The notes beneath the pieces were generated by a model that searched no databases, was not told the DNA's origin, and saw only the letters and a list, made by a program, of their open reading frames with translations. Source: a virus (Duplodnaviria; Caudoviricetes). From it: a stretch of DNA of 64,000 bases. This document shows, one piece after another, positions 1 to 36,030 of the stretch. The stretch lies in the IMG/VR virus record IMGVR_UViG_3300044641_005618; one strand, given 5' to 3'. Position numbers and translations under genes: made by a program. Each line of letters begins with the position of its first letter. Position 1 is the stretch's first letter.

Positions 1-951
1 GAAGGGGGAACGGCATGTTGGGGGAGTGTGAAAGTCGTCCAAAGGTTGAGACATGTACCTCATTTTTTCATAACCAGGGTCTTCACCCTTACTTCTTTTC
101 AGCTTTTGCAGCTGCTTAACAAATAAAGAAGGTGTCATGTCGTGCAAATTCTCCTTAGGTATACACAAGGCTTTGCCCCCATTCCCAAATACAAGCAGCT
201 TAGTTAAACTTTTGTGGTACGGGTGAGTCAAACTTCCAAGAGTGTTAAGCATGATTATCTCTACAGCATCTCTAATTTGCGCATCGGTCAAGTAAGTGTT
301 GAATCTTGTGTTGGGGTACAAACGCAAGTAGGTCTCTAACTCTTCGGCTGACTTATGAGTGAGCCGCCATTTACCCTCTCTCACCACAAGTACAAGTCGG
401 TGGGATTCTTCTAACAACGGGTGAACCCATGTGGAACCATCTATGTAGGATCCTGAAGGTGGGTGGTTTCTGTCGCCGCTCTCGTGCGCCAGAATTGTAA
501 CAGCTCTTGTGGGGGGTAGGTGGTTCCACGGAGTGTACGCGAGCTCTACCCCCGCCGCACCCGCCGCGCCACCGGCTCCACCAGCGCCACCGGACCCCTG
601 CACAAGACTCCCCAAGGGTGAGACACAAGTTTGGTCAAGCAAGGGCACCCAGTTTGAGCTACTCGCGGTCTCCATCCAAATATACCTCCTACCCTCGGCT
701 GGACAGTGGTGTATTTGCCCTTTCGATGGGTTTGGTGGGAAAGTTAGGGTTTTATCAAAAAATGTTATGGGATTGTCTTTTCCGTAATTTTCAAGATCGG
801 CGATAGACGTGGTAGGGTTATTCACCCACTCAAGAAAGTCGTCACAGCTTTCTAGAAACTCGGTGGAGTTAGACGAGTCTGCGCAAATTGGTCGCTTCCC
901 TTCGGAACCAAACCCCAACCACTTTAGTAGCTTTTCTAAGTAGTGTCCCAC
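1..951 (-). CDS. Partial hypothetical protein running off the window start; Gly/Ala linker and FPxNPxxGQ...YxW motif
   Basis: Hand translation: open minus frame from GTG at 951 to position 1 with no stop. Absent from the ORF track because it has no stop codon. Confidence 0.7.
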   Translation of the reverse strand, partial: MGHYLEKLLKWLGFGSEGKRPICADSSNSTEFLESCDDFLEWVNNPTTSIADLENYGKDNPITFFDKTLTFPPNPSKGQIHHCPAEGRRYIWMETASSSNWVPLLDQTCVSPLGSLVQGSGGAGGAGGAAGAAGVELAYTPWNHLPPTRAVTILAHESGDRNHPPSGSYIDGSTWVHPLLEESHRLVLVVREGKWRLTHKSAEELETYLRLYPNTRFNTYLTDAQIRDAVEIIMLNTLGSLTHPYHKSLTKLLVFGNGGKALCIPKENLHDMTPSLFVKQLQKLKRSKGEDPGYEKMRYMSQPLDDFHTPPTCRSPF

Positions 952-968
952 AATTAAGCTCTTGTTAG

Positions 969-1178
969 TTATAGAGAACGAAGCATGCGAATTGCATCAC
1001 CTTGGGAGAAGTACTCTTGTGAGTACAAACAGTCCACAGACGACGGGATGAATCTTCCGTTCTTGTCAAACGGGATCGGCCACCAGTACATGCCTACTTT
1101 TGTTCTGCATGGGTATATGTCTGCGGATTGAACTCGTGGCTTTTTGATCTTGATGGGTGTTTTCATAGTTAGTCTCAA
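969..1178 (-). CDS. Small hypothetical protein
   Basis: ATGA overlap with the polymerase stop; same strand as neighbours. Confidence 0.6.
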   Translation of the reverse strand: MRLTMKTPIKIKKPRVQSADIYPCRTKVGMYWWPIPFDKNGRFIPSSVDCLYSQEYFSQGDAIRMLRSL

Positions 1179-4105
1179 ATCAATCCTTTTTGAATAGCTT
1201 CGTATCGTGTCTTTAGCTTGTCTACAGCCCCAATCTCACCGAGTTCGGTCATCGAGTACTCAACTCCGTTAGGTTCTTTCGCACCGTGGGGGTTTGAAGG
1301 TGTTACCGTGCACTCTTTTGGGGACTTACGAATCCGAGAGTCAATTGCTACTGAGGAGAAGAACGCACGACTCAGTGGAAGCTCCGGTATATCCATTGCG
1401 CTATGGAAATTCGCCCAGGTATAAAGATGGGCAATTTGAAACAAAACGGCAAACTGTGTAGCGTACCGATCGGGAGTCATGAAGTGAAGTTCGTCATGAA
1501 TGCTGATAATGAAGCGGTAGGGAATTTTGTACTCTTCCGCTAGCCACGCGACAGCCGTGAGCGTTATGGATAGAATTTCGGCACCCGATGCCTGGATGGC
1601 CCAGTTTGTGCGTCCTGTCCTAAAGTCGGTCCCAACTGCCGCAGGTCGCATTGCAGTCGAAATTTTGGTACCAAGGCAAGGCAGCTGAGGAACCTTTGTC
1701 TTCATGGAGATTCGCTCCATCAAGTTGAATGCGCCGGAGTCAGAACCACCTTCATACACTCCGTTCACAAGAACACCTTTTTTCGAGGACAGTGCTTTCA
1801 GTGCGAAATCCTTAACTTCTCTCTCTCCTTTCTCAGGAAAAGTTCGTCGAATTGGAGTGCTCAATGCTCTTACGCTCCCCCCGTACAAGGTTGCAAAACC
1901 GACAATCTTACTCAGGTCTCTGGCTTTCGCCAGGAGTTTGTACAACTGGGGTTCAATTGGGCTTAACCATTTTTCTCCAGCCTTTACACAATTTGGTACA
2001 TTCAACGGTTCACTCTCATGACTGTAACAAATTCCTAGCTTCCTGTCCCACACAAGCCCCTTATACATCTCAGGGAGAATGGCCCGAGCAAGAGCGGTGT
2101 GGGGGTCAGTGCCGTTTTCCTTGGATCCTGACAGGACATTGTAGCCCATCGGCGAGCATCCGACAAAGCCACCCTCCCAAGTATCGCTGTATATGGATGC
2201 GATCTGAAGCTCTTGACCATCGTAGTCGGCGCTTACAATTTTCCAGCCTTCGGGGGCCTGCACTCGTGTTTTCAGCTCCGTGCCAATTCTCCAGTTTTTC
2301 GTGGAGCACATGGTTGCCATCAAGCTTTCAACGGTTCTTCGAGTTACCGTCCCGTGGCAGAGAATCTCGGGAAGAGTCACGAGAGCGGACGAACCATGCG
2401 GGTTTTCAGCGCGGAGGAAGATCCGGTCCATCACCCGCTTACGAACAGAAGTCCAGTAAGAAATAGCGTTTGAAATCTCCAGAGCTCTCTTAGCTTCAGG
2501 GAGATCGCTACTTAGCCTCCCGGTTTCCATATCTTGGACAAAGTCCTTGCTGAGTAACACTCCGGTATTATCCCCGGTCCCTTTAGGGTGGGGAACTTTT
2601 ACAAGGCTACCTGTTTCATCGTAGTAGCACCAACCCTCTGTTTTGGTTTGAACAATGTGTGATCCCTCGTACTTGAGCTTCAACAGCAAGTGAGCCAATT
2701 GAGACTTCACTCCGATGTGCTGTTGCGGATCTTTCACAAAGGGTTGCACCCAAGTAGGGACCCACGCGTACTTTCCTTTTCTACTCCAAAGCTCCCAATT
2801 AAGCTGAGACACCCAAGGGTCTTGCTCTGCCCACTCCTGCGCCTTCGTGATGCCCTCCTCCGGGTCCTCCACGCTATTAAGGACAGTCTTCCACTCGTTG
2901 TACGTTTTCCACACAAGTTCTCTGCACAGCTCGGTCATTTCCTGGCTGTGCTCATGGAACACTCTTTCTGTGTTCTGAATCCACTCAGCCCAGTTTTCTA
3001 CCAGTGGTACGACCGAGCCGTTTAAGTGGTAGTGGCCGCAAAGGCCCACCATTGAGGGAGTGCTATCGAGATACTTCGGCCACAAAGCCTGAAAAAGCTC
3101 TGCCGTGTAAAATGCGTCCCTTACCGCGTACTCTACGGCCTTCTCAAGAACTGCTGTGATTTGCGAGATGTGCGTAGCGTCTACGAAAATGTCTCGTATC
3201 TTCTTGTCCCCTTGGTTAAGCGGGCGGACAGTCTCATCGCCGAAATACTTTCGAACCTCATAAACGTGAAAGTTGTAACACTGGACCAAGCTGTTTGTTG
3301 AGCCCTCATCTAGCCACTTTGGTGCGTACCTGAGCTTTCTCTTTTCCTCTTCAGTCAGGTTTTCTGGGTCTTTTGCCGCAAGAAGGTACAACCACCGTTG
3401 TCCTGATGCCAAACCCGACACTCCGATATGCGCGGAGAGGGTGTCAAAGTAAAAGTTTTCAGGCTTGTTACGGCTAAGTGAGTATCCTTCTCGTGTTCTC
3501 ACACGATCGTAGCTAATGTTGTGGCCCGCTACAAACCGGTTCTCCCCAATGGGAATAAGGTCGTGTTGGTCCCACTCTTCCTCGGGTAGGGTTGGGTCAA
3601 TAAGCTCTGCCGCGAGCCAAATGTAGGTTGCTTTTTCGCTTAGTGCTGTCCCAATAATTGGAAATGCACCCGCTTTTACAAAGGTTTCAGTGTCGTACGT
3701 GAAAGCCTCTTCGAGAGGGAAGGGTACGGACTCGACAATAAACTTCCCGTCCACAAACTCATAGCGTGTCCATCCCGCCTGATATACGAAATCGGAAACT
3801 GCAGGGAGTTTTGGGAGTTTGCACCCCGCTAGAGAATTCGCAAGGGTTTTGTACACCCCTACCTGCTCTGTTGCTATGTTTTCAAAGTGCTCCTGTAAAT
3901 TGCTACCCCTTAAGCTTGGAAGGGGCAAGGGACCATCGTACAGGTTGTCTGGGTGATCAACAGGGACAGATATACCAAATTGCTTTAAGAGTCGTTCGGC
4001 CTTTTGACGTGCCTTAACTCCCATTGAAGCTGCCTTTTGTCTGCCGAAAACCTTATTGTGCAGTGGAGTAGACAGGACAGGGTAGCCGAGTTCGCTGGTT
4101 CTCAT
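1175..4105 (-). CDS. Family A DNA polymerase with 3'-5' exonuclease, Pol-gamma (POLG/Mip1)-like
   Basis: Exo DTETF, GHNISYDR, FDTLSAH; motif A ADYDGQELQIAS; motif B ARDLSKIVGFATLYG; motif C ISIHDE; POLG-type segments KVPHPKG..NTG..LSKDF and GTVTRRTVE..RIGTELK..VQAPEG. Confidence 0.95.
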   Translation of the reverse strand: MRTSELGYPVLSTPLHNKVFGRQKAASMGVKARQKAERLLKQFGISVPVDHPDNLYDGPLPLPSLRGSNLQEHFENIATEQVGVYKTLANSLAGCKLPKLPAVSDFVYQAGWTRYEFVDGKFIVESVPFPLEEAFTYDTETFVKAGAFPIIGTALSEKATYIWLAAELIDPTLPEEEWDQHDLIPIGENRFVAGHNISYDRVRTREGYSLSRNKPENFYFDTLSAHIGVSGLASGQRWLYLLAAKDPENLTEEEKRKLRYAPKWLDEGSTNSLVQCYNFHVYEVRKYFGDETVRPLNQGDKKIRDIFVDATHISQITAVLEKAVEYAVRDAFYTAELFQALWPKYLDSTPSMVGLCGHYHLNGSVVPLVENWAEWIQNTERVFHEHSQEMTELCRELVWKTYNEWKTVLNSVEDPEEGITKAQEWAEQDPWVSQLNWELWSRKGKYAWVPTWVQPFVKDPQQHIGVKSQLAHLLLKLKYEGSHIVQTKTEGWCYYDETGSLVKVPHPKGTGDNTGVLLSKDFVQDMETGRLSSDLPEAKRALEISNAISYWTSVRKRVMDRIFLRAENPHGSSALVTLPEILCHGTVTRRTVESLMATMCSTKNWRIGTELKTRVQAPEGWKIVSADYDGQELQIASIYSDTWEGGFVGCSPMGYNVLSGSKENGTDPHTALARAILPEMYKGLVWDRKLGICYSHESEPLNVPNCVKAGEKWLSPIEPQLYKLLAKARDLSKIVGFATLYGGSVRALSTPIRRTFPEKGEREVKDFALKALSSKKGVLVNGVYEGGSDSGAFNLMERISMKTKVPQLPCLGTKISTAMRPAAVGTDFRTGRTNWAIQASGAEILSITLTAVAWLAEEYKIPYRFIISIHDELHFMTPDRYATQFAVLFQIAHLYTWANFHSAMDIPELPLSRAFFSSVAIDSRIRKSPKECTVTPSNPHGAKEPNGVEYSMTELGEIGAVDKLKTRYEAIQKGLI

Positions 4106-4159
4106 GTCGTTGAATTGTTATGGTTTAGTTTATCCTAGGGGGTTGTCGTAGCGGAAGCT

Positions 4160-5026
4160 TTAAGGCTTCCTGTAAACAGGTCGTGCCAGAATGACTGGGG
4201 GCTTCACTTCTTCCTCGGGGGCTCCGGAGTCGAATTTGTGCATTTTTAGGTCGAAAGCTCGAACACCGCTGCTTGTGTAAACAGCGTCTTTGTGAAGCTT
4301 GTAGGTTTCGTAGGCGTCGAAAATCGGTGAGAAGTGTAGGGGTCGCTCACCCGGTTCGTCACGCCACATTAGAATCTCAACAAGAGAGAGCGGGACGTCT
4401 GTGTCCCATTGTTCGTCTCGTTGCCCGTAAAGCAAAGGAAGAGCGTCGTTCCTCCACCAGTCTGTAACTTGGTCTATGTATTGCTCCCATGCGTCGGGAT
4501 CTGTGACGTGAGTTTTACAGTCTTCTCTCAAGTACGCGACGTACTGCCTCCCCCGGTCAATTACAACTTGTGCGGACTCTGGGAGAGTTTCCAGCAAGTA
4601 CGCGGGGTCGTCGAACGACGCAACTCTTTCTATCACAGCCGGAAAGAGGAAGGCGTAGCTCATTAGTCTGAAGTCGTCTGCTCCTTCGCAGATATGCCTC
4701 AGAAGGCACTCGATAACGGCAAGTGTTGACGCTATTCCGAGCTCTGTCTCGTCCTCCAAAGGAGATTCAGGGGGGAGTGACTCTTTCACTTGTTTTCGAA
4801 GCTTGGTAAGTTCAAGCTCAAGACGCCTCACCTCGCGACCCATTTCCCGTTCTAGCTTAGCCTTGTATATCTCAGTTTGTGTTAAAAGCTTGTCAAACTT
4901 TGTATCAATTTTTTCTACTTCCGAACTGAGTTGTTCGATGCTGATCTTGAAATTTGATATTTTTTTCTTAAGTGAAGAAACCGAAGACCTCATGCTATCG
5001 GTTGCAAACACTATGTTATCCATCAT
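4160..5026 (-). CDS. Hypothetical protein with N-terminal coiled coil
   Basis: 288-aa ORF with heptad-like K/E/L-rich N-terminus. Confidence 0.75.
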   Translation of the reverse strand: MMDNIVFATDSMRSSVSSLKKKISNFKISIEQLSSEVEKIDTKFDKLLTQTEIYKAKLEREMGREVRRLELELTKLRKQVKESLPPESPLEDETELGIASTLAVIECLLRHICEGADDFRLMSYAFLFPAVIERVASFDDPAYLLETLPESAQVVIDRGRQYVAYLREDCKTHVTDPDAWEQYIDQVTDWWRNDALPLLYGQRDEQWDTDVPLSLVEILMWRDEPGERPLHFSPIFDAYETYKLHKDAVYTSSGVRAFDLKMHKFDSGAPEEEVKPPVILARPVYRKP

Positions 5027-5038
5027 GGGTGTTTCGCT

Positions 5039-5596
5039 TTAAATGGGTTTGATTTTGGCTTCTAAGTGGTCAGACTCAGGGTCTACTGAGGTTATTGTAA
5101 AGGAAAACTTTTTGTCGGGGTCCGATCGAAGGTGAAAACTACCGGAGAATCCTTCCCCGTCTTTTGAGCTTAAGAAGCTGTTTCCCGGTGTTGGGGGGTG
5201 CTCGAACGAAATATCGTCTTTGAGCTCCGGGTGGGAGTCTTCGATTGCTGAGATGAGCCGGTTGTTCACTGCAGATGCTGTCGCCAACTCAAACTCGGTG
5301 GAAATTTGAGGGTGAAAGCCGTCTTCTGTAACTTCGAGTTTGAACGACGCACCCGTGTCAAAGTAGATATGGTAAACAAGCCCGTCCTCCTCAACTTCAA
5401 AGCACGCCTCTTCTGCGGAAAACTCACATTCTTCGTCAGGAGACCCGTTAATTTCTACTTCCAGGAGTTCGTAAAAAACGTCTCTCAGTACCTCTGCATC
5501 TAGAACTCCTCCCAAATGATTTGAGATGGCTAGGAAAATTCGGGGGTTTGAAAGTAACCTGGAAACCGGATAGACTACAGTCATGGTTCTGTTCAA
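5039..5596 (-). CDS. Hypothetical acidic protein
   Basis: 185-aa ORF in the operon between topoisomerase and polymerase. Confidence 0.7.
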   Translation of the reverse strand: MNRTMTVVYPVSRLLSNPRIFLAISNHLGGVLDAEVLRDVFYELLEVEINGSPDEECEFSAEEACFEVEEDGLVYHIYFDTGASFKLEVTEDGFHPQISTEFELATASAVNNRLISAIEDSHPELKDDISFEHPPTPGNSFLSSKDGEGFSGSFHLRSDPDKKFSFTITSVDPESDHLEAKIKPI

Positions 5597-5674
5597 CTAT
5601 TAAGAGTTTAGCCGGGCAATGTCCAACGTAAAGTCCCGTACCCAATTTTACCCGGTTTCACTCCGTTTTTCGTC

Positions 5675-7696
5675 CTAAGGTAGTTTCACCTCATCTATAT
5701 TTGCGACTTTAATTCCTTTGCCCCCCGGCTTCCCGAGCTTTACTGACAGGTCGAGTTTCGTTGCCTTCTTTCGAGTGGAAACCCAGTCCAGGGTGAAACT
5801 CCCCTCCCCAAAGTGCCTGAGTGTGGCGCCTTCGGGCAGCCACCTTTTGCCCTTGCTCGTTACCTTGCAAAGGTCTTCTCCGCTCAGGGTCAGTGCTTTG
5901 AGCTGCCCGTCGAGTTCGAGCACAACTAGGTACTTTTTCAAGGAAACCTCAGACTCCTTCTTCGCCAAGCAAACAGCGGAGTACGCTGTTGAGATAACTC
6001 CCTTGAAGGTTGCTGACACCTTTTTCAGTGTCCCGTCCTCAGTCATAAGAATAACCTTGTCTTTGGGGTCTACGACAAGAGCTCCACGTGGCCCTTTCAC
6101 CTGCTCAACAGTGCCCTTCTTCGAGTCAATCTTCAGGAACCGTGGCTTTGGAGCGGCTGCAGGACGCTTCACGCTTTCCCCAGGAGCACGGGTCACACCG
6201 CCAGTTGGGGGGTCTATGAGGGGGCTTCGGCGAGCCTCTCCGTGGCGTTTTCCTATCTCGGTCAGCTCATTGAGCATATACACTTGTCTCGCGGTAGTCC
6301 CTCTGGTTTCGTCGCTGGACAGCTCTACCAGCTCTTGAATCCGACCTTGAAGGTAGTTATCCTCATCAATAAGGTCGTTTTGGTCAAGGTTCGTAAGCTG
6401 ACGCAAGCGCATATCCAGAATGGCCTCAGCTTGCTTATCTGAGAACTTCAGCGGTGCGGTCGTTAGAGCAACTTTCGCCTCAGATTTATCCTTTGCCGCA
6501 CGAATACGCTTAATAATCAAGTCCATCTTGTCAATGGCTTTGAGCAACCCCTGAACAATTTCCAGGCGATCCTCTCGATGAGTGAGCTCATTCTCGAATT
6601 TAACTTGTAATCTACCCAACCTCCATGTCACCCATTTCTCTACAATTTCCACCGGGGAGAGCTCTATGGGCTTCGTGCCATCGATAACTAAGGTTCTCGC
6701 TGAGAACTTGGAGTCAAGGTCGGTGTAGGCATAAAGTTGATCTCTTAGCTTTTCCGGGCTCACACCGGGCTTGGCCACAATTTGAACGCAGTCCCCCGTA
6801 AGATCGGACAGGTCGTTGACCTCAGCGACACCCTCAACCCTCCCTCGCTCAACCTCATTTTTCACTTGCTCACCGATTTTCTCAGGATTGGTTCCTGGCG
6901 GTAAGTTCGTGAAGGTTAAGGACGGACGGTCCTTTGCCTTTCCACTACGGGTCTGGGTACCAATCTCAACCTTCGCCATGCAGCGAATGCTGCCAATGCC
7001 TGTTAGTGAGTATTGCTCCAACTGATCGTCTTTTACAATCAGGGTCCCAGTTGGAAAGTCAGGGAAGAGAACCTCTCGTGCTTTTCGTAGGTTTTCTGCG
7101 CGTGCTTCAAACGTTATCGCTTCCTTGCAAACCAGCTTGGTTGCTTCAACAATCGAACGGAGACTGTGAGAGGCGATTTTACAGGCGTATCCCACGCCAA
7201 TGCCCTCTTGACCATTGAGCAAAACGTAGGGAATCTTTGCGTTTAACTCGATTGGCTCCTGCAGCGTACCGTCGTAGTTTGGCATCGTCTCCCAGGTTTC
7301 TGAGTCGTCGAGGAGGCAGTCCCAGGCGAAAGGGGAGAGCTTGCACTCAGTGTACCTTGACGACGCCGCAGAGTCTGTCGAAGACCCCCAATTCCCGTGC
7401 CCGTCTACGAGCGGGGCCATATTATTCCACGGGGCAGCCAAAGTGACAATAGAGCTGTAGCTTCCGCCGTGGGGGCTCAATTTACCCATAACCTCCCCCT
7501 CTACCCTGGCGCTTTTCATGTAGCGACCGTCTGGCTTCAAGTTGAGCCACTTCATAGCTGTTACAATGCGCCGAGAGATACTCTTGCACCCGTCCGTGTA
7601 CCGAGGGAAGGCTCGCCCCACGATTACACTGAGCGAGTAGGCAAGGTAGTCGTCTTGAATTTGCTGGACTAGGTTTACATTGACAGTGTTTGTCAT
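5675..7696 (-). CDS. gyrA: Type IIA topoisomerase subunit A (GyrA/ParC family), short C-terminal domain
   Basis: DGCKSISRRI, KSARVEGEVMGKLSPHG, DGHGNWGS, catalytic SRYTECKL, NGQEGIGVG, FPDFPTG, QAEAILDMRLRQL. Confidence 0.93.
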   Translation of the reverse strand: MTNTVNVNLVQQIQDDYLAYSLSVIVGRAFPRYTDGCKSISRRIVTAMKWLNLKPDGRYMKSARVEGEVMGKLSPHGGSYSSIVTLAAPWNNMAPLVDGHGNWGSSTDSAASSRYTECKLSPFAWDCLLDDSETWETMPNYDGTLQEPIELNAKIPYVLLNGQEGIGVGYACKIASHSLRSIVEATKLVCKEAITFEARAENLRKAREVLFPDFPTGTLIVKDDQLEQYSLTGIGSIRCMAKVEIGTQTRSGKAKDRPSLTFTNLPPGTNPEKIGEQVKNEVERGRVEGVAEVNDLSDLTGDCVQIVAKPGVSPEKLRDQLYAYTDLDSKFSARTLVIDGTKPIELSPVEIVEKWVTWRLGRLQVKFENELTHREDRLEIVQGLLKAIDKMDLIIKRIRAAKDKSEAKVALTTAPLKFSDKQAEAILDMRLRQLTNLDQNDLIDEDNYLQGRIQELVELSSDETRGTTARQVYMLNELTEIGKRHGEARRSPLIDPPTGGVTRAPGESVKRPAAAPKPRFLKIDSKKGTVEQVKGPRGALVVDPKDKVILMTEDGTLKKVSATFKGVISTAYSAVCLAKKESEVSLKKYLVVLELDGQLKALTLSGEDLCKVTSKGKRWLPEGATLRHFGEGSFTLDWVSTRKKATKLDLSVKLGKPGGKGIKVANIDEVKLP

Positions 7697-7742
7697 TTCA
7701 AGGGTAATTGCTGAGCTAATTTGGTTGTTAAAGAAGGGTGTA

Positions 7743-8248
7743 TTAATTATTGTCGTTCAAATCCCACAAGCCATTGCTCTGCAGCCAGTGATCGGCAAGA
7801 GTCTGGGAGGTCCAACCCCATGAGTCCTTGCTGTTAAACTTTTCCAGCATCTCTCTCAGAACTTGGTCCTCTTTGTACAAGTGGGATAGACCAAGCTCGC
7901 GAAGTGTCTCAATAACTTTTCTAGCAGCGTCACCGACCCTGCGAGGAGTCACAAGCATGGGCGAAGTTTCTGCTTACTGAGGTGAGTGTGCCCCACTGCA
8001 AGAACCCTCTGTGCTACCTCTCGTGTAACATTGTACTTGCATCCACTAGGGGATCTGTCAACAAGGTACTGTTTTTTCTGCTCCAGCGACAAAAGGTCAA
8101 ACAATTTGTCTTCGTCTACCCACATACCATAGTTGTAGTTTCTATCGAGAAAGACACGAACTCGGTTTCGGTAAAATCGTGCGGGATCAATACTTTTGTT
8201 CTCCGTTACAAGTAGCTCAATCATGCTTTCTTCCTCTTTTAAGGTCAT
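7743..8248 (-). other. Two small hypothetical CDS (7949-8248, 7743-7958)
   Basis: Tightly overlapping minus-strand ORFs. Confidence 0.55.
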
Positions 8249-8501
8249 TGTCGTAGTTTAGTTGAAGGGTGAGCCAAAACTTTTCAGTTGGTTGTCCGAA
8301 CACGTACTCAAGGCGCTCCGCTAGATGAGGGTCGATGCGAAGGTTCCCTTCCTCAAGTTCAAGAACTTCGGGTACGGTTAACCCTGTTTCTCCCGCAAAG
8401 TCGTGAAGAGAAATTCTACGCTCCAGACGTAACTCCCTTACGATAGACCCTGGAGGTGAAGCCCAGTCTGGGTTGAATGACATTGGTTCTTCGAAGGTCA
8501 C
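8217..8501 (-). CDS. HigA-like XRE helix-turn-helix protein, no adjacent toxin
   Basis: PPGSIVRELRLERRISLHDFAGETG...AERLEYVFGQPTEKFWLTLQLNYD; in-frame GTG 6 nt after the -10 box. Confidence 0.8.
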   Translation of the reverse strand: MTFEEPMSFNPDWASPPGSIVRELRLERRISLHDFAGETGLTVPEVLELEEGNLRIDPHLAERLEYVFGQPTEKFWLTLQLNYDNDLKRGRKHD

Positions 8502-8507
8502 GTAAAT

Positions 8508-8569
8508 ACTATAGCGTTTTCCTTCTGGAAAACAAACGGGGAAACCGCCCAAGGCAAGGGGGCTAACCG
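8508..8569 (-). promoter_or_regulatory. Repeated promoter element (tandem box, -35/-10), leaderless
   Basis: CGGTTAGCC-N13-CGGTTTCCC..TTGTTT..TATAGT-N6-GTG; spacer TTTTCC-AGAA-GGAAAA. Confidence 0.8.
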
Positions 8570-8593
8570 CTCACCGCCCAACGGGGGTCAAGG

Positions 8594-8770
8594 TCAATCG
8601 TCAATTGAGACACCTTCAACAAGCCTGGAAAGGCGTTGAAACCGAGAAGAAGTGAGGGGCACAAGGCCTCCTTCGCACGACACGGACTCCAGTAGAAGAC
8701 GGTCCAGGAAGTTTAACAGAGTCTCGCTGTCGTTGAAGGGGTAGGTATCTGAGTCCGGGTTGTATGACAT
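8594..8770 (-). CDS. Small hypothetical protein (58 aa, starts MSYNPD)
   Basis: Hand translation; below the ORF-track cutoff. Confidence 0.5.
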   Translation of the reverse strand: MSYNPDSDTYPFNDSETLLNFLDRLLLESVSCEGGLVPLTSSRFQRLSRLVEGVSIDD

Positions 8771-8849
8771 TGGTTTTCAGGATTTATGAGCGTATTATAG
8801 CTGTTTTGCCCCAGCAAAGCAAGCCGGGGAACCATCCTAAGGCAACACT

Positions 8850-9035
8850 TTACCTTGTTGCAGTTGAAAGAAAGGGGTGCCCTTCATCAAGCGGTGTGTC
8901 ATCCAAACAGGTAGACACTCCAAAGTGCGACACTCCAAAAAATTCCCCGTCTACCTCCACAGTAGCGTCCTTGTCCAGGTCATCGTTAGAAAAAGTCTGC
9001 AAACTTTCTAAAAGTTCTCGGAAAGTTAGTGTCAC
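8850..9035 (-). CDS. Small acidic hypothetical protein
   Basis: GTGA overlap with upstream ATPase stop. Confidence 0.6.
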   Translation of the reverse strand: MTLTFRELLESLQTFSNDDLDKDATVEVDGEFFGVSHFGVSTCLDDTPLDEGHPFLSTATR

Positions 9036-9601
9036 AGCGAGGGAGCCTCCTTAAAATGTAGCTCACCAAGATAGCTCAAAATCTCTGTGTCCCTGCGTTC
9101 GTCCGGTCCAGATATTGAGATTGGACGGAACCCACTGTACTTGCACAGATAGTCGTAGACAAACTCGTCAACTCTTTTGGCTTGGTCTTCGGTTTCGTAA
9201 CGTCCGCGAGGGTCGAAGGGCTTGATGCGATTTAGGAAGAAATTCTTGTACGTTACACCCCTTTCCTCTGCGTGAGCCATGAAGGATTGAGCGGCGGAAC
9301 TTACGTACGTGTCTTTGCCTTGAGACCGGTAGTCTTGGTAGATTCCTGCCAGAAGTATAGGGCTGTCGGTAACAATGTAGTCAACTTTGCCGTACAGCAT
9401 GCTCTCGTAGGCGCTTTGCTTACCGAGGAGGTAGAGTTGGTCCCACTCACGCACTTTGCGGTCGTTCCACGCCCAGTACTTCACATACTCTCTTACAAGT
9501 TCAACGTGAATGCCGGCCAGCTTCATTCTGGCGAAGAGGAGCGCAGCTGTGGTTGATTTTCCGCAACCGGACCCGCCGAAGAGGTTAATTACTGTTGTCA
9601 T
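9032..9601 (-). CDS. P-loop ATPase/kinase (AAA_28/NadR-kinase-like)
   Basis: Walker A GGSGCGKST; ELVREYVK; IVTDSPILL. Confidence 0.8.
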   Translation of the reverse strand: MTTVINLFGGSGCGKSTTAALLFARMKLAGIHVELVREYVKYWAWNDRKVREWDQLYLLGKQSAYESMLYGKVDYIVTDSPILLAGIYQDYRSQGKDTYVSSAAQSFMAHAEERGVTYKNFFLNRIKPFDPRGRYETEDQAKRVDEFVYDYLCKYSGFRPISISGPDERRDTEILSYLGELHFKEAPSL

Positions 9602-9730
9602 TTTGCTTTAATGGTGGTTTTGATTTAAGGCTTATAGGTAGAAAGAAGGGGGGGGGCCACAAACTTAGTATAGCGGTGTAGCTGCCTTGTAACTAACACC
9701 CGTACAGCGTCCCTTGTGAGCAGGGTTCCA

Positions 9731-10366
9731 CTAAACGTCCAGGTCTAGGAAGGACAGCTCACCAAGTCCAACAAACTCTACCCCTTTGTACACCGTATGG
9801 TGATTTAGATGCCAGTGGCCATGAATCCATAGTTCCGGTTTGTGGGTCTCGAGCATGTTGTCGAAACACCTTCGTGTTACCGAAGGGATGTCAAATTTTT
9901 GCTTTCCTATTTTGTGACACACTAACGAAATTACGGAGTCAGGACACTCATGTGTGACAACGATCTTGGGTTTCACAAGCTCATACGCGTCCATAATGTT
10001 GGAAAGCTCTCCGTAAGAAAGCTCTTCGTCAGGCCACCAGTCGTAGCGCTCGGTACGTCGGTCCCTGTCGATGGAGTAAGCTCCACCCACACAAAAAATG
10101 TCGCCGCGACCGAACACCGACCCCCCGTCTTTCACCCAGTAGGGGTGTCTTTTGCAGGCACCGGGACTGTCGTGGTTTCCCCGTATGAAAAAGTGCTCAC
10201 CCTTTGACATCGCGTCGTAGGGTGGGCTGCTGTATGGCTTTTCGGTCTTCGGGTCAATGAAACCCACACCGAAGTCTCCCACTTGGACTGAGCGGTTGCA
10301 TTCTCTGATTAGCTTCTCATACTTTGACCATTTGCCATGTACATCACCAATAAATCTGATTTTCAC
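9731..10366 (-). CDS. Calcineurin-like metallophosphoesterase
   Basis: GDVHG, GDFG, GNHD, THECP, HGHWH. Confidence 0.9.
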   Translation of the reverse strand: MKIRFIGDVHGKWSKYEKLIRECNRSVQVGDFGVGFIDPKTEKPYSSPPYDAMSKGEHFFIRGNHDSPGACKRHPYWVKDGGSVFGRGDIFCVGGAYSIDRDRRTERYDWWPDEELSYGELSNIMDAYELVKPKIVVTHECPDSVISLVCHKIGKQKFDIPSVTRRCFDNMLETHKPELWIHGHWHLNHHTVYKGVEFVGLGELSFLDLDV

Positions 10367-10596
10367 AGTGTTCCCCTAAACAAGTCAATCACTCTCTGTA
10401 TCGCCTCAGATATTTCACCGGAGTCGTTATCAATAACTCTCTGGTCAACCATCCAAGAAATGAGATTGAAGATGTCTTTTTCAGTCGGTCCCTTTACCTG
10501 CGACTCTTTCAACGCTGCAAGTGCGAGGCATGTTGTAGCGGACTCGTAGGGTATCTCGTCGAGTAGGGCAGCGCAAATGGCGCGAAAGTTTTTCAT
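10363..10596 (-). CDS. Small hypothetical protein, leaderless start
   Basis: ATG exactly 6 nt after TATAGT. Confidence 0.65.
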   Translation of the reverse strand: MKNFRAICAALLDEIPYESATTCLALAALKESQVKGPTEKDIFNLISWMVDQRVIDNDSGEISEAIQRVIDLFRGTL

Positions 10597-10602
10597 ACAC
10601 TT

Positions 10603-10665
10603 ACTATAGCGTTTTTGTCGCTATAAGGCAAGGGCCTAAACCGCCCCGCTCAGGGCGGTTATCCG
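10603..10665 (-). promoter_or_regulatory. Repeated promoter element, leaderless
   Basis: CGGATAACC-N13-CGGTTTAGG..TTGCCT-N17-TATAGT-N6-ATG. Confidence 0.8.
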
Positions 10666-10897
10666 CTTTTTCTAGCTGTAGGCCTGCCGCTACCATTCGC
10701 AGTGAGTGCTCGGCGTCAGCTACGGCTTGTTCCTCAGGCGACGGCAGCTTTCGTTCCAGCAACTCGTCACCCCACTGCCATTTAGCCGCTTGTTCTTGGG
10801 TGGGTTCTCTTTGGTTAGTCATTATAACATGTGAACAATAAGGGTTCTTAAAGTGACTAAGGAAGTGCCTGTACGACACTTCTTTTGCACTTTATTT

Positions 10898-12004
10898 CTA
10901 CAGAACGTTTAAGTCAGGATACAGGCTCAAAAGTTCATCCTTTGACAGAACATCAAACTCGTCTTCGGGTTGCCAAATAACTTCCAGTGCCATCAGATCC
11001 TCAGGAGAGACTGAACCAAGGGTTACAAGATTGGCGTTTAAGCTCTCGTGCGAGTCCGACAGTTTGAGATCCAGCTTTCGGTCCGATGCCACAAGCACGC
11101 TCACAAGGATATATTCGTTCTCCTTGGCGTCCCTTTGGGGTTTGACCTTACGCTCTGTGACGCTCCCGCCCACATTCGTGAGAACTTCCTCTGATGCCTT
11201 CGAGCGTTCTTCCATGGAAAGTTGGTCGAATCGGCTTTCTGCCTCTCCTGACGCCACCTGCTCAGTACTGCTCCACGCGTAAACAACTTTGTCGGGGTGG
11301 CGAAGAAGGGCGAGGGAAGTTTCTTGCAGGATCTTCGAGAGACCCTCAGCACTGTCCGTGTCCCCTCGCCGAGCGAGTCGTATTAGGTCTGTTTGTAGGT
11401 CCTTTGCAGAGGCGAGCAAGGCCACTCGCTGCCTCACCACGGTCGTCTTTCTAAGCTTGTCCCGCTGAGTACTCACCCATGGGCTCACAAAGTCGTCCCA
11501 ACCCCCAGCCAGCAGAAAGATAGCCAAGCCTCCTACGCCTAACACGGCAAGGATCCCAAAAAAGAATGCGGGACTCACAGGTGTTTGAGGCACTGGTGCC
11601 ACTTGCGAAGAGTAAAGTGGCGGAGCAACCGGATAGACGTTCGGTGTCATGTCCGGCATCACAATGATGTTCGTTCTGTTGTTTCCGGGGTTGCTGTAGG
11701 GTAGTGTTGTTCGGTACGGTTTCGAAGGGCTGCCACCGTAGTAGCTTGGACTTCTATTCAGCCCCGGTGCAGGGGTGCTTCTTAGCACCGGTGAGGGAGA
11801 GGTCCTATAGCTTGGAGAGCTGGAGCGACTACTCCCGAAACTTGGGGACCGAGATGGTCGGCTATAGCTAGACGAACTGCGAAAGCTCCGTCCGCTTATT
11901 CGTCCGGCTGACGCTGCGAGTGCCGGTGTTGCCGAGAGCAGGGTTGCTAAGGCGAAAGTCAAAGCCAAGACAGTTGCTGCGGTTGCTGCGGTTTTTGTTT
12001 TCAT
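10898..12004 (-). CDS. DUF1517 family membrane protein (FLAP1/FlpA homologue)
   Basis: Signal peptide ending PALA, ASAGRISGRSF Ser/Arg-rich segment, one TM helix, LQETSLALLRHP, EAESRFDQLSMEERSK, EYILVSVLVA, LEVIWQPE, LLSLYPDL C-terminus. Confidence 0.88.
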   Translation of the reverse strand: MKTKTAATAATVLALTFALATLLSATPALAASAGRISGRSFRSSSSYSRPSRSPSFGSSRSSSPSYRTSPSPVLRSTPAPGLNRSPSYYGGSPSKPYRTTLPYSNPGNNRTNIIVMPDMTPNVYPVAPPLYSSQVAPVPQTPVSPAFFFGILAVLGVGGLAIFLLAGGWDDFVSPWVSTQRDKLRKTTVVRQRVALLASAKDLQTDLIRLARRGDTDSAEGLSKILQETSLALLRHPDKVVYAWSSTEQVASGEAESRFDQLSMEERSKASEEVLTNVGGSVTERKVKPQRDAKENEYILVSVLVASDRKLDLKLSDSHESLNANLVTLGSVSPEDLMALEVIWQPEDEFDVLSKDELLSLYPDLNVL

Positions 12005-12080
12005 TGTGTTGCAGTAGTGTTACCTAGAAAATGCTAGGCGAAATGTTATGGGACAATCTTCCTTAATACCTGGGGATCGC

Positions 12081-12857
12081 TCATACAGCGTCCCACTCAT
12101 TCGCCTTGAATTTCGGTCGCCACCAGTTTCGAACTTTACCGGCTTTGTCGATAGACAAGATAATGTAGTCGCCGAACCCCGCGTCACCTTTGCACAAATA
12201 CTCGTCAGGAACGTAATCCCCACGGTACTTAAATAAGCGGTGCTCCGAGTCTCTGAGCCAGTACTCACCTTGGTCGCACACTTTGTAGTAAATTTCGGCT
12301 GTGACTCCGTAGGGCCACTCCATCACCTGACCGTCTTTCAGGCGAATGGTTGGAGTCCAGCATTTCCCGGTTCGGAGAGGGATGAGTGTCCCCTCTTTGT
12401 CAATCGTCTCATTGACTGTCGCGTCTTCCCAGTACCTCACTTCTGCCGATATCTCAAGAAACTCTAGTTTTGGAGTCTTAGTGCCGGAGAGGCTAACCGT
12501 GCTCTTAGCACTCGACATGTCCGGGAACCAAGTGTCTTTTCGGCTAGAGTATACGGCGGTGTCGTCTTCGGTGAAAGACCTCTTTCGGCCAAACTTGTAG
12601 ACCTCCACTTGGTCCTTCGTAAAGACATAGCAAAAGTCGGTAGATGCGCTGGTTTCCCATTTCCAGGGCCAACCCTCTTCAGGAGAGTGAAAGTCGTCCC
12701 GTTTGGCTATGCGCCTGATTCCGGACCGGAACTCGTGCGCGGAGGTGACGAACGTGATTTCCGGACAAATAGTTTCAAGAACACCACCGTCGGAGGAAAT
12801 AGACCCGAGCCACTCCACGGACTTTGGACTTCTAACGTAAAAGTCTGCCGGTTGCAT
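12081..12857 (-). CDS. Hypothetical protein
   Basis: 258-aa ORF directly downstream of a promoter element. Confidence 0.7.
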   Translation of the reverse strand: MQPADFYVRSPKSVEWLGSISSDGGVLETICPEITFVTSAHEFRSGIRRIAKRDDFHSPEEGWPWKWETSASTDFCYVFTKDQVEVYKFGRKRSFTEDDTAVYSSRKDTWFPDMSSAKSTVSLSGTKTPKLEFLEISAEVRYWEDATVNETIDKEGTLIPLRTGKCWTPTIRLKDGQVMEWPYGVTAEIYYKVCDQGEYWLRDSEHRLFKYRGDYVPDEYLCKGDAGFGDYIILSIDKAGKVRNWWRPKFKANEWDAV

Positions 12858-12893
12858 AATGAAAGTTGAGTCTGCGCGAGTATGTATAAGGTA

Positions 12894-12956
12894 ACTATAC
12901 CGCTTTCCTTGCGGAAAGGCAAGGCGGTAAACCGCCCCAGAGCAGCCGGTTAACCG
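12894..12956 (-). promoter_or_regulatory. Repeated promoter element
   Basis: CGGTTAACC-N13-CGGTTTACC..TTGCCT-N17-TATAGT; spacer CTTTCC-GCAA-GGAAAG. Confidence 0.8.
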
Positions 12957-13853
12957 TGCCCATCCAACTCAGTTGCAATCGCGTACAACTTCTCTTGGTA
13001 GTGCCCGTGTGCGCCAAGCGGTGTTAGTCCGAGTTCACCTCTAAATTCAATCTGCGTTATCAGTTCTCGAAGAAAAGCAGCCAGTGCTTCACCGGTGTCT
13101 TCAAAAACCCCTAGGCGGTCTGCAACGTCGCAGTAGGCGTTCCATGCGGCTTCGGCTTCAGGGCTGAGTTTGTGCTTAGTCATTTATTCCCAAAAAGTGG
13201 ATAATTAGAATAGACAGCAAGAAACAACCGGCGATAGTACCGAGGGTTGAGTACAAAATTTCAAACATTGTCGCATGGAAGTTTTATATTCCTTTCTGCA
13301 GAAAAATTGTGTAAAGCCCGTGACACCTCGTCTCCAATGGCGTCCTCTATGTCATTGAAGCAGGAACCAGCGTAGGTTCGCCAGGACTGAGTCTCTTCGT
13401 CAAAGTCTTCTAACCGGGTCTCCACGATTGTTCGGTACGGCTCGTAAATCGCGAGGATCGTTTCAAATTGCGCCTTGGATAGGCTTACCCTGCGGGTGTT
13501 TATTCCGAGTGCTTCAGCGATCTGAAGAGATGTGTTTGCACTGAGATACCTAATAACGACAAGGTTATGGTTCCACATTATGTAGGACTCAAGGGTGAGA
13601 CCAGGGATGCTACTCATTTACTTCACCATTCATCAACAGGAATGTCATCGACGGGTAATATGCGTAAGTGACGCACGGTGGGGTACTTCTCGGGAAGCCC
13701 CCTAGTTGCTCCGCAGGTTGAGCACCTGTGCGGGTATTGTAGGGGTTCAGTTAGCCAGGCAACGGTGCCGTAAGGCTGCATTGTTCCACTTTCACACTCG
13801 TCGCATTCATACTCAACCCCGACTACTTGTAGCGGAAAAGTTTTCTCAGCCAT
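12950..13853 (-). other. Three small CDS: 12950-13183, 13261-13617 and a CxxC..CxxC zinc-ribbon protein at 13623-13853
   Basis: ORF track; CDEC and RCSTC motifs. Confidence 0.6.
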
Positions 13854-13970
13854 TGTGCCCCCGAATGCTAGCTTTCTTTTGTGCTGCTGCGTAAACTTCT
13901 GCGGTTACCATTATCTTATGTTAGTGTGTTTGAGTCATAGGAGGAGTCTGTGTCAGCGGAATTGCTGGAC

Positions 13971-13993
13971 AAAAAAGCCCCCGTTAAGGGGCT
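13971..13993 (-). terminator. Rho-independent terminator
   Basis: AGCCCC-TTAACG-GGGGCT followed by a T run. Confidence 0.8.
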
Positions 13994-14004
13994 AGTGTTT
14001 TAGC

Positions 14005-16099
14005 TCATTCAGCTGAACTAAATGAATTAAGGTAGTCAATCACTTTGTTGGTGACGATTACCCGAGCAAGCTCGTCGCTTGCCTTGGTGTCGGCATCACT
14101 TTCGTGATACCGTTGTAACTCTACGACCGTAGTCAAAAATAAAGACTGTAAAGTCTCTTCTAGTTCGTTAAGCGAGACATCAGGTACTCCTGTTTGTTCA
14201 ATTTCTTGAACCAGTGAAAACATAGAGATTTGAGTTTTAATCATTGTTTAAAGGTGTAATGAGAGACGTTGACCCTCAAGATCGTAGGCTAGGTTCATAA
14301 GAACTTGTCTTGTCATTTGAGTTTGCGTGGTCATTCCCCAGGCCATAGCATCTCTTCTACTTTCCAGGTTCTCTTGTGGTCTAATTTCAATCCAGGGAAT
14401 AGTCAGATCTGTAACTGCACAGATCACGGCGGCAACGCACTGCGGCGGGCATTCTGCCCCGGCGGCGGACCGGACTGCCTGAGCAACCGGGCTTAAATTC
14501 TCTGGGAACTCAGTAGGCATTTTCGTCTCCGACTAGATTTGCAAGTTCCTGAATAGTCATTTTGCGAAGGTCTTCGATCATGATCGTGTCTTCTGTTGCC
14601 ATCTTCAGTCCAAAGGAGTAACCTTGCTCATAACCTTCTCTTCCTGCTTCGTTATACGCCCCGTTCCACTCTAAGTTTTTCTTTCTTAAGTGTCTGTGAC
14701 TCTCAATTAGTGATGCAACAGTAAGTGGTTCCAGGGGTGTGTATTCTCCGTGAATTTCGGAGTCGTAGTCAGCAAGGAGCTTGTCGTCGTCAGTCATTTT
14801 GTTCGTGCCTATAAGAGTCTTCTTGGTCCAGCCTCGCCTCTAGCTTAGCGATCTTGTCGTAAAGGTCTACAATGGTGTCAATTAGGTCTTCGTAACACAG
14901 AGTCGGGGACTCCCCGTCTTCTGAAAGCTTGGTGTAATACGTTTGCCACTCTTCGGGCTTTGTGTAATAGCTGTAAGGGTGTATTTTCAAAACTCCTCCA
15001 CAATTAGTGTGTTACCTACATAAGTGATTCCTGTTTTATTAAGTTTGTCACTGGTGTCAAGTTCATCGGTACTCGTCAGGCGTCCCGACACACCAGCCCC
15101 ACTATCCCGACTAGTTAGCGGGTAGGTTTCGTCACCAATGCAGCGCTCAATCAAGTTGGCCAGTTGATAACGAGTTAAGCCAGGTGGGGGTTCCCTTATC
15201 ATCTGAACCGCAAGGGCTAATCCCTCGTCCAAAGCTGCTAAGGTTTCCTGTATCAGGATGGCCCTTAAAAAGCTCTCTTGCTCAAGGGTGAATTCCTGAA
15301 CCAACCTAAGATCAACCTTCTCCCCAGTGTCTTTAATACACTGAAGGGTCTTCTCGTCGTAATTCATTGGTTTCGATTTGTAAGTGATTTGAGTGGTCTT
15401 AAGGCGAGCCCAAAAATGTTCTTAAGGAGCCCAGCAAATTTTGAGAGGGGTGATACTTCTGTAGTAGGGTAGGGAATGAAAGAACCTGTGTCCAGCCACC
15501 TTTGCAAAACAGTAACCAGGGACTGAACCTGTTCTTCCCCAAGGTGCATTCTATCTTCCCCTTGGCCCAACCACACCGCAGACGTCCCTGGCTCCCAATA
15601 AACGGCAAGGGAGCTTTGTTGCAGGCTGCACTCCTTGTTGTATAGATCTTGAAAGCCAATGACCTCAAATCCCCTCTCGGTGCGGGTCACCAACCCAAGT
15701 TCTCCGGTGAGTTCGAGATCTTCCATTGCTTCCTCAAAGGAATATGTTTTTTCTTCTCCGGACTCAACACGCTTTGCTATGGTAATGGCATCGAGAACGT
15801 CCTCGTCACTCCAATTCGTGTCCTGGAACCAGTTCTGGTAGTAGCTCTGGATTCTCGCTATCAAAGTTCGGTTAATCATTCTCGTTGATTTCGCTCAGTG
15901 TTTGTTTTTTCGAGGTGCTCCGGTCGTATCGTTTACCAACCCAGTGCGGGCAGCTGTGACCCCAGTCGGGCTTTGTGCGTGCGTCAAGAAACTCACACAG
16001 TCCTGAGGCTAATTCACCTCCTTTACCGCCGTTTGATTGCACAAGGGAATCTTTTTTCCACTTGGTGTAGTAGACACAAGACCCGCAGCTTTTGCTCAT
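14005..16099 (-). other. Run of small hypothetical CDS (14005-14244, 14248-14520, 14510-14797, 14790-14990, 14987-15367, 15364-15879, 15872-16099)
   Basis: Head-to-tail minus-strand ORFs with start/stop overlaps. Confidence 0.65.
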
Positions 16100-16133
16100 T
16101 GCTTCGCCCCACGTGTTAGGTCATCTTTCACTA

Positions 16134-16196
16134 AGTATGCCGGTTTTCACCAGGGAAGTAAAGGCGGGAAACCGTCTCGAAGCAAACGGTCAACCA
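16134..16196 (-). promoter_or_regulatory. Repeated promoter element
   Basis: TGGTTGACC-N13-CGGTTTCCC..TTTACT-N17-CATACT. Confidence 0.7.
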
Positions 16197-16222
16197 TACT
16201 TTACACAGGGAAGGACACAGAA

Positions 16223-19200: not shown

Positions 19201-19435
19201 AACGTTCAACCTCAGGAAGATCATGAAGAGGTAAACTTGAGCAGAAACCAACCTCGTGTAGTGGGAGACTTTCTACGTGATTCTTCCTCGTGAGTAAAAC
19301 CTTGTTATCCGGGTCATCTGTAGGTATGCGGAATAGCTCGTCAGGGTCTAAGAGTGGAGCGTACCTGACGTATTTGTCATTGTCATAAACGGGTACGACC
19401 GTTTTAGTTAGAGTGTATATTGTGGCGTTTCTCAT
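16223..19435 (-). other. Run of small hypothetical CDS, including DUF551-like ERxP..W proteins (17206-17559, 17454-17669), a Cys-rich protein (17666-17902) and a WGADQELDACCEWL protein (17895-18623)
   Basis: ORF track; motifs resemble small-protein families of picocyanobacterial phages (recognised by eye). Confidence 0.55.
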
Positions 19436-19508
19436 TTTTCAGTGGTTTAGGGGTGTGAATTAGTATGCTGGACCGGAGTCGAGGTAAAGGTTCCCTGGCG
19501 AGGTCCCC

Positions 19509-19838
19509 CTAGTCGGACTCGTCCGGCGATAGGATCTCGTCGAGGTCGACTTGGACACCCGCCACCAGTAACTGGAGTCGTTCGACCAGGCTCGCGCCCA
19601 CAGCCCGCAGGTATTCTCCTTGGTTTATTTCGTCGAGTCTGCACCACTCTTCAAGATTTGGATTCAAGTCTGGGGGCGAAATGGGCCAGTGCTTGGCCTC
19701 GTATTCCTCTACTAAAATTGTCAAGGTCTCTAACTGGAGGTACTCGGGGCTACCAACCAATGCACCCAAGCAGCTATCAATGTCCTTAAGCGCAAGGTCG
19801 TACTCGGCTTCGTTTGCGAGAGGTTTAACGGATTGCAT
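19509..19838 (-). CDS. HigA-type antitoxin N-terminal domain protein without HTH
   Basis: NEAEYDLALKDID...LETLTILVEEYEAKHWPISPPD. Confidence 0.65.
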   Translation of the reverse strand: MQSVKPLANEAEYDLALKDIDSCLGALVGSPEYLQLETLTILVEEYEAKHWPISPPDLNPNLEEWCRLDEINQGEYLRAVGASLVERLQLLVAGVQVDLDEILSPDESD

Positions 19839-19863
19839 GGTGTTTTGGCGTATGATGTCTAAG

Positions 19864-20268
19864 TTATAATGTTGTGTTTCTAATTAGGACCCCCAACTTA
19901 TTTGGCAGAGAAACAGGGATTCCACCGCAAACTTTGCAGTAGTCCTCGGGTTCAGGTTCAGGGGTTAGAAGCCGATGTTTGTTATTGTACTGAAGTTCAT
20001 CTAACCGCTCCCTCACCTCGATGAGTGACGCGAGGGGGAACAACCACCTACCATCAGACTGAAAAGCTCCAGGAAAGTACCCGCCTTCAAGCCAGTTACT
20101 GACACTTTCGTCGGAGTCAATCTCAAGGAAAGCCGCAGCTTGCTCTGAGTCATACAGGTCTGCTTTTGACACGAGAGTATAGTTTTCAGCTACCGATTGC
20201 AGAATAGCGTTGTTGTCTCGGATTCTTTCCACAACAGTTCTCGGGCCAAAAGGTGCTGAGTAATCCAT
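19864..20268 (-). CDS. Excisionase/MerR-like helix-turn-helix protein
   Basis: YDSEQAAAFLEI...VSNWLEGGYFPGA...GRWLFP. Confidence 0.7.
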   Translation of the reverse strand: MDYSAPFGPRTVVERIRDNNAILQSVAENYTLVSKADLYDSEQAAAFLEIDSDESVSNWLEGGYFPGAFQSDGRWLFPLASLIEVRERLDELQYNNKHRLLTPEPEPEDYCKVCGGIPVSLPNKLGVLIRNTTL

Positions 20269-30592: not shown

Positions 30593-30773
30593 GGTGGGCA
30601 GTTAGTTAGGTAACAACGACAGTATATTGGCATTAACCCACTGGGTCTCTTCTCTCGACAACTTAAGCCACAGAAGGTCAAGCTCGTCGAGCAAGGCCTC
30701 CTCCGCGTCCTCGTTTCCCTCTCCCCTTAACTTTAGGGACAAGCTAAGTTTTTCGCAGTAATCTTTAACTTCG

Positions 30774-31364: not shown

Positions 31365-31370
31365 AAAACA

Positions 31371-36024: not shown

Positions 36025-36030
36025 ACACCT

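Follow-up and report, generated by a model that had tools for sequence, protein, structure and literature searches.

DNA polymerases related to the mitochondrial polymerase gamma (Pol gamma) are already known from several cyanophages: the enzymes of A-HIS1 and A-HIS2, S-TIM5, S-CBWM1 and Mic1 have all been published as Pol-gamma-like (PMC7156551; PMC10201439), and reports of such polymerases go back to 2011 (Chan et al., 2011, as cited in PMC10201439). Here we describe a further enzyme of this group, encoded in a stretch of 64,000 nucleotides from a virus of the Caudoviricetes (IMG/VR record IMGVR_UViG_3300044641_005618), which we call the window. The gene (P0001; 1175..4105, minus strand) is an uninterrupted open reading frame for a protein of 976 residues, and we interpret it with high confidence as the replicative DNA polymerase of a freshwater jumbo cyanophage with a genome of ~277 kb, belonging to the Pol gamma subfamily of the family A DNA polymerases (CDD cd08641; cluster 2 of PMC10201439). 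An earlier note, made from the letters of the window, had placed a Pol-gamma-like polymerase at 1175-4105 and had named A-HIS1/2 as precedents; the identification is borne out by Pfam profiles, phmmer searches, the predicted fold and trees, and the precedents are right but understate the published set, to which S-TIM5, S-CBWM1 and Mic1 also belong. The polymerase extends a known group by a well-supported member but does not represent a new type; beyond the literature covered here, only a confirmed insertion and a set of conserved unnamed neighbours are contributed by this locus.

The closest isolate in the phage database is the Synechococcus phage S-CBWM1 (Aokuangvirus, NC_048106), whose polymerase gp77 (annotation: 'DNA polymerase gamma') shares 57% identity with the window polymerase over its full length. 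The window gene begins with ATG, and in the alignment its first residues coincide with the N-terminus of the S-CBWM1 polymerase. The two loci share the order topoisomerase II / gp75 / gp76 / polymerase / gp78, the same site and type of insertion in the fingers, and a Phe replacing the motif-B Tyr (PMC7156551); S-CBWM1 additionally encodes a TET/JBP protein, psbA and a D5-like primase-helicase. The differences lie in the size and setting of the phage, S-CBWM1 being a 139-kb estuarine phage as against the genome of ~277 kb considered here, in the insertion, which is 13 residues shorter in S-CBWM1 (a spacing of 46 versus 59), and in the modification genes, the window having two TET/JBP genes and a larger hypermodification cassette. 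The next isolates are the S-TIM5 group at 34% and A-HIS1/2 and Mic1 at 30% protein identity. These polymerases belong to the same subfamily, with 30-34% identity across 97-99% of the length, and share with the window enzyme a minimal architecture lacking the animal spacer expansions; those of S-TIM5 and Mic1 differ from it in being without the fingers insertion.

The family assignment is supported by sequence searches. The Pfam model of the mitochondrial polymerase exonuclease domain (PF18136) is matched with full profile coverage at an E-value of 5e-62 and 210 bits, against a cut-off of 26.7, and phrog_22619 is matched at 724 bits; the generic PolA model (PF00476) gives a weak match of 37 bits around motif C. 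With phmmer and all PDB sequences as the target, human POLG ranks best (E 8e-99), followed by yeast Mip1 (2.5e-93), and Klenow reaches only 7e-3. The five POLG-type segments singled out in the earlier note all occur in the translation, as PHPKGTGDNTGVLLSKDF, GTVTRRTVE, RIGTELKTRVQAPEGW, NWAIQAS and AFFSSVAIDSRIRK. The open reading frame is truly related to mitochondrial DNA polymerase gamma, and chance is excluded as an explanation of the resemblance.

The catalytic residues of both the exonuclease and the polymerase domains are all present, and they are identical to those of human POLG and Mip1. The 3'-5' exonuclease domain of the mitochondrial-polymerase type, as delimited by PF18136, spans residues 61-345 (3071..3925, minus strand), and its DEDDy residues, namely D138 and E140 of Exo I, D200 of Exo II, and Y326 and D330 of Exo III, are invariant in a family alignment of 91 rows. 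In the polymerase domain, likewise on the minus strand, motif A (2210..2227) supplies D627 and E632, which fall in invariant columns and align with D890 and E895 of the human enzyme; motif B or the O-helix (1883..1921) contains R729, K733, F737 and Y741, with conservation of 90% or more at R729, K733 and Y741; and motif C (1490..1498) consists of H870-D871-E872 in columns that are again at least 90% conserved. F737 occupies the position of human POLG Y951 in the alignment, matching the Phe reported at the equivalent position for S-CBWM1 and A-HIS1/2 (PMC7156551).

An AlphaFold2 model computed from the family alignment attained a predicted local distance difference test score (pLDDT) of 94.6 and a predicted template modelling score (pTM) of 0.92. 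Foldseek searches with this model ranked 35 POLG/Mip1 chains first, the top one being human POLG (8d33_A; template modelling score (TM) 0.80, E 9e-60), with Mip1 at TM 0.76 and the best non-gamma PolA, Klenow, at 0.36. In the comparison with human POLG and yeast Mip1 (PDB 8d33, 9c51; TM 0.76-0.80) the alignment runs through both the exonuclease and the polymerase domain from end to end, at ~26% identity. The short list of Pol gammas from isolated cyanophages is thereby extended by one that is modelled at high confidence and has its catalytic residues intact.

The enzyme is a single chain with an N-terminal proofreading 3'-5' exonuclease, a short thumb or spacer and a palm-fingers polymerase domain, and represents a minimal Pol gamma core. 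Relative to POLG/Mip1, it has no targeting peptide, is missing ~170 residues of the spacer and ~54 residues between motifs B and C, and has gained 49 residues at the fingers tip. The spacer difference is also apparent in the phmmer alignment, where residues 434-715 of human POLG face just residues 399-501 of the query, and in the animal enzymes from a fish and a tardigrade, which are longer by ~170 residues in the stretch that corresponds to query positions 441-498. The spacer region of human POLG docks the accessory subunit. An animal-type expanded spacer with an accessory-interacting subdomain is not found in the window polymerase, and no HGTP_anticodon domain of the POLG2 type was detected in the nearest full-length record (G001), in a complete relative (G008) or in S-CBWM1, with all 14 of 14 control genomes matched, though a divergent homologue could escape such a search. 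Because both the animal spacer and a POLG2-like gene are missing, the polymerase would act alone, like yeast Mip1, or with phage-specific partners, and would be independent of a POLG2-type clamp. It should be useful for the biochemistry and structure of a minimal, accessory-free Pol gamma and for rooting the family.

Among 1.84 billion representative proteins searched, 1381 relatives were recovered at E<=1e-3, a count that includes eukaryotic enzymes, and the close relatives of the window polymerase form 289 clusters at 90% identity; five long relatives were named by cluster look-up as tardigrade, fish, Fonticula, Candida and Rhodotorula proteins. Hence the phage side of the family is far larger than the "several cyanophages" of the literature. 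The earlier note had called for a family A phylogeny, and in two trees the window polymerase lies inside Pol gamma and not with PolA or T7-type enzymes; its reading of the gene therefore stands. In a FastTree phylogeny of 150 rows a branch with 99% support divides all the Pol-gamma-like rows from T7 gp5 and Klenow, and the Mic1-like rows group with the opisthokonts (98%). A quick IQ-TREE search under LG+C20 with 55 rows recovers the split from T7 gp5 and Klenow with 98% support, unites the named eukaryotes in one clade (100%) and places the window polymerase within an S-CBWM1 clade (99%). This clade is nested in a 35-row, all-phage clade (100%) that also contains A-HIS1 and S-TIM5 and excludes the opisthokonts, whereas the Mic1-like phage rows lie outside this all-phage clade, together with the opisthokonts across the 100%-supported split. 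Judged by these sequence trees, the S-CBWM1-like clade is not the phage group nearest to the opisthokont mitochondrial enzymes. The root is set by the two outgroup sequences, T7 gp5 and Klenow, both of which are on very long branches, and the basal node is a polytomy; we therefore make no claim on the direction of transfer.

As for the phage that encodes this enzyme, the nearest record is the viral contig G001, of 277,244 bp and 98% completeness, which matches positions 118-20000 of the window at 88-96% DNA identity and encodes a polymerase with 99% protein identity to that of the window. Because G001 carries psbA, the host is a cyanobacterium. Related polymerases are encoded on contigs of 100-280 kb, one of which (G008) is complete at 279 kb with terminal repeats, which places this type of enzyme in jumbo (~200-280 kb) freshwater cyanophages. 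In G001, G008 and S-CBWM1 alike, this polymerase is the sole family A match, and no family B polymerase was detected in any of the three. Its status as the only polymerase of families A and B, together with its intact proofreading domain and its conserved position beside a topoisomerase subunit, leads us to propose that it serves as the replicase.

The remainder of the replication apparatus can be sketched from the same genomes. A D5-like (DUF5906) primase-helicase of superfamily 3 (SF3), homologous to the A-HIS1 "primase", is present in G001 and S-CBWM1, and a FEN-type 5'-3' exonuclease is encoded in the window (41468-42352). Within G001 the homologue of the A-HIS1 ORF016 primase-helicase is distributed over two open frames ~930 nt apart (G001:C1:246961-249608; L016, L017), while the S-CBWM1 homologue is one frame of 691 codons; the split suggests another intervening element. 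In the nearest genome, searches for a DnaB/gp4/Twinkle-type helicase gave no match to DnaB_C and one 13-bit P-loop match to AAA_25, which is below the cut-off, and the Mic1 helicase as a query retrieved nothing from G001. Thus, the replisome would probably combine the Pol gamma core with the D5-like SF3 primase-helicase, the FEN-type 5' nuclease and the type II topoisomerase, and is likely not a mitochondrion-like or T7-like set. The T7-like RNA polymerase model PF00940 likewise had no match in G001, but had none in any control genome either, and is thus uninformative.

Several readings of these data other than that of a phage Pol gamma replicase need to be weighed. One is that of a generic PolA or T7-type polymerase with convergent or superficial Pol-gamma-like motifs. 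It could appeal to the PF00476 match, weak as it is at 37 bits, and to the view that the Pol gamma family itself derives from T7-like PolAs (PMC10201439), but is refuted by the gap of ~96 orders of magnitude between the POLG and Klenow E-values, the TM of 0.80 to POLG against 0.36 to Klenow, the 210-bit match to the Pol-gamma-specific exonuclease model and the 98-99% branch that parts the clade from T7 gp5 and Klenow, and we regard its probability as negligible. T7 gp5 nevertheless offers a parallel, being a phage family A replicase with a proofreading exonuclease and a lineage-specific module on the PolA core, although it is a distant relative only, across that long branch. The earlier note, in turn, had seen in this gene a bearing on the viral origin of mitochondrial replication, and one could accordingly look to it for evidence on evolution, taking it for a near viral relative or an ancestor of the mitochondrial replicase. 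The large diversity of phage Pol gamma (1381 representative clusters at E<=1e-3, the eukaryotic ones included) and the several deep phage clades as against one opisthokont clade would speak for this idea. Against it stand the placement of the window enzyme in the 35-row all-phage clade that excludes opisthokonts, the Mic1-like rows falling with the opisthokonts instead (by the side of the split in IQ-TREE and with 98% support in FastTree), and the dependence of the root, and with it of any direction of transfer, on two very long outgroup branches; moreover, because the genome, as judged by the DnaB_C and AAA_25 models, is without a DnaB/Twinkle-type helicase, there is no mitochondrion-like replisome as a package. 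We therefore consider this improbable and the bearing on mitochondrial replication weak: since other phage enzymes stand nearer to those of the opisthokonts than this clade does, and the remaining replisome parts are not mitochondrion-like, the picture of mitochondrial origins is unchanged.

The third reading accepts a true Pol gamma homologue but assigns it to repair, recombination-dependent synthesis or gap filling, with a host polymerase or an undetected phage polymerase replicating the genome. Family A enzymes commonly have roles in repair, and several considerations that weigh against a replicase belong here: the sole-polymerase status was established on close relatives of the window and not on its own assembly, the search covered families A and B only, and a family C, PrimPol-type or host polymerase may contribute. 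Further reservations are that the absence of a Twinkle-like helicase was judged with the Pfam DnaB_C and AAA_25 models only and that the search for a T7-type RNA polymerase had no working positive control. Genomes of this order (~280 kb) that have a primase-helicase and FEN of their own normally carry a replicase gene as well. The repair reading also has to contend with the finding that this is the only family A/B polymerase in two complete or near-complete relatives and in S-CBWM1, with the intact proofreading exonuclease, and with the location of the gene in a conserved string with a topoisomerase subunit; hence, even though no biochemistry or activity data exist for any phage Pol gamma (PMC10201439), we consider a repair role very unlikely and prefer that of the replicase.

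The most distinctive feature of the window polymerase is an insertion of 49 residues at the tip of the fingers (residues 676-724; 1934..2080, minus strand), between the DxH motif and the O-helix, which is supported by both the alignments and the AlphaFold2 model and agrees with the ~50 residues between motifs A and B that had been surmised from the sequence. The DxH motif and the motif-B Arg are 59 residues apart in the window enzyme, but 10 in 104 of the 125 scorable representatives, including all the named eukaryotes and S-TIM5, 11 in T7 gp5 and 19 in E. coli Pol I. In comparison with the S-TIM5-like enzyme, it is the sole length difference of at least 15 residues. In the model it comprises four beta strands (684-687, 691-696, 707-709 and 712-716) directly preceding a helix (719-740), with a pLDDT of 86-93 for the block. 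S-CBWM1, with its shorter version, has the module in common with the window polymerase, as do 25 related loci from metagenomes. A further 69 loci with enzymes of 915-932 residues, from a sister or nested clade, are without it, and unrelated insertions are seen at the same site in the A-HIS1 clade. Its modelled position at the fingers tip suggests, as a conjecture, that it may contact the template strand or a partner. The module of T7 gp5, by comparison, is inserted in the thumb and binds host thioredoxin, whereas that of the window polymerase is in the fingers and has no known partner. An adaptation of the insertion to a thymine-hypermodified template was considered and rejected: G008 has the insertion with no TET/JBP, and the relatives G003 and G004 have TET/JBP with no insertion.

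Polymerase genes of several relatives, as opposed to the uninterrupted gene of the window, are broken by intervening sequences, in one case within this very module. In the locus L102 (6001-9675) an 804-nt stretch with stop codons (about 8100-8930) splits the insertion module, while the backbone is 82-100% identical to that of the insertion-free locus L071 except around the module, where identity to L071 falls to 50% and that to an insertion-bearing phage rises to 80%. Some 40-80 flanking residues, including the motif-B flank, are of the insertion-bearing sequence type, and yet the L102 polymerase falls inside the insertion-free clade of the tree with 97% support. The intervening stretch contains a frame of 243 codons with a weak match to an HNH endonuclease PHROG (E 0.008). 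This pattern suggests homing of a mobile element with co-conversion of the flanking exon. The Pol gamma genes at L111 (5751-9237), L119 and L120 (e.g. L120:4426-9729) are interrupted one to three times, by sequences of 0.66-1.7 kb. One of these lies at the DxH/motif-B site that holds the insertion in the window polymerase, and so does the intron (L005, 5821-6234) that splits the Mic1 polymerase gene (PMC7156551). The intervening sequences of the relatives gave no Rfam match, either at the gathering threshold or at E<=1, and hence cannot be called as group I introns. A single gain of the insertion was also rejected: one clade tree allowed a single change, but with the interrupted relatives taken into account the starred branches force at least three.

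Speculatively, the insertion could be a mobile cassette that spreads horizontally among the Pol gamma genes of related jumbo cyanophages and may be kept as a docking surface for the conserved neighbours of the polymerase, proteins of 65, 288 and 181 residues, or for the SF3 primase-helicase. We hold this to be doubtful; if true, Pol gamma would here have a holoenzyme of a new kind.

The neighbours in question are part of a string of genes on the minus strand, comprising a topoisomerase subunit, an acidic protein of 181 residues, a coiled-coil protein of 288 residues, the polymerase and a protein of 65 residues, with gaps of 8-78 nt; S-CBWM1 has the same string, at 25-46% identity. At its head is a type IIA topoisomerase subunit of the GyrA/ParC type (P0004; 5675..7696; PF00521, E 1e-91; phrog_551), which takes the same position in S-CBWM1 and in the metagenomic relatives. 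The 181-residue protein (P0003, counted from Met5; 5039..5584) is 33% identical to S-CBWM1 gp75 (E 1e-24) and occurs in 56 related loci. The 288-residue protein (P0002; 4160..5026), with an N-terminal coiled coil and a helical domain, is 25% identical to gp76 in the same position of S-CBWM1 (E 1e-23) and occurs in 63 related loci. Lastly, the gene for the 65-residue protein (P0299, counted from Met5; 969..1166) starts 8 nt past the polymerase stop codon; in 99 of 101 related loci the gene immediately after the polymerase is a homologue, and PSSV and C columns are invariant in its alignment.

None of the three proteins matches a known family in Pfam or PHROGs, ESM Atlas look-ups for the 288- and 181-residue proteins returned nothing usable, and no homologue of any of the three is found in the S-TIM5, A-HIS1 or Mic1 loci. 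The AlphaFold2 model of the 181-residue protein, with a pLDDT of 81, resembles no known fold: Foldseek returned nothing at E<=0.001, and in the VIA wide search the highest Z was 6.7, under the background of 7-8 stated for it. Its N-terminal half gave weak matches to single beta clamp/PCNA domains at Z 4.5-5.1, not above noise. A co-fold of polymerase residues 46-976 with the 65-residue protein, both entered as alignments, scored 0.00, which is evidence neither way. A processivity partner, for which the earlier note had pointed to the interval 4160-5596, is thus not in evidence there: the interval holds two conserved neighbour genes with no family or fold match. The three neighbours are candidates for clade-specific parts of the replisome, and no more than that.

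The linkage of the polymerase to a topoisomerase, tRNAs and a modification locus, as described in the earlier note, holds insofar as all these elements exist in the window, but only the topoisomerase is adjacent to the polymerase. The DNA hypermodification cluster (25985-38492, minus strand) encodes an amino acid:DNA transferase, an amidoligase-like protein, a glutamine amidotransferase, an ATP-grasp protein, two TET/JBP dioxygenases of 495 residues each and a thymidylate-kinase-like protein. Three tRNA genes, for Ser-CGA, Ile-TAT and Arg-TCT (46379-46967, minus strand), are 42 kb away from the polymerase and hence not functionally linked to it. The window further encodes an RNA ligase (23707-24339), a DUF2828/DUF7788 protein (53039-54580) and three calcineurin-like phosphoesterases (9731-10366, 42413-43207 and 56559-57296). 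A scan of positions 1-9000 of the window for promoters and terminators performed no better than on shuffled sequence. An intergenic element of 50-70 nt (~12885-12968 in the window) is repeated at more than 12 places across G001, on both strands and with 76-91% identity, and may be a regulatory or terminator-like repeat.

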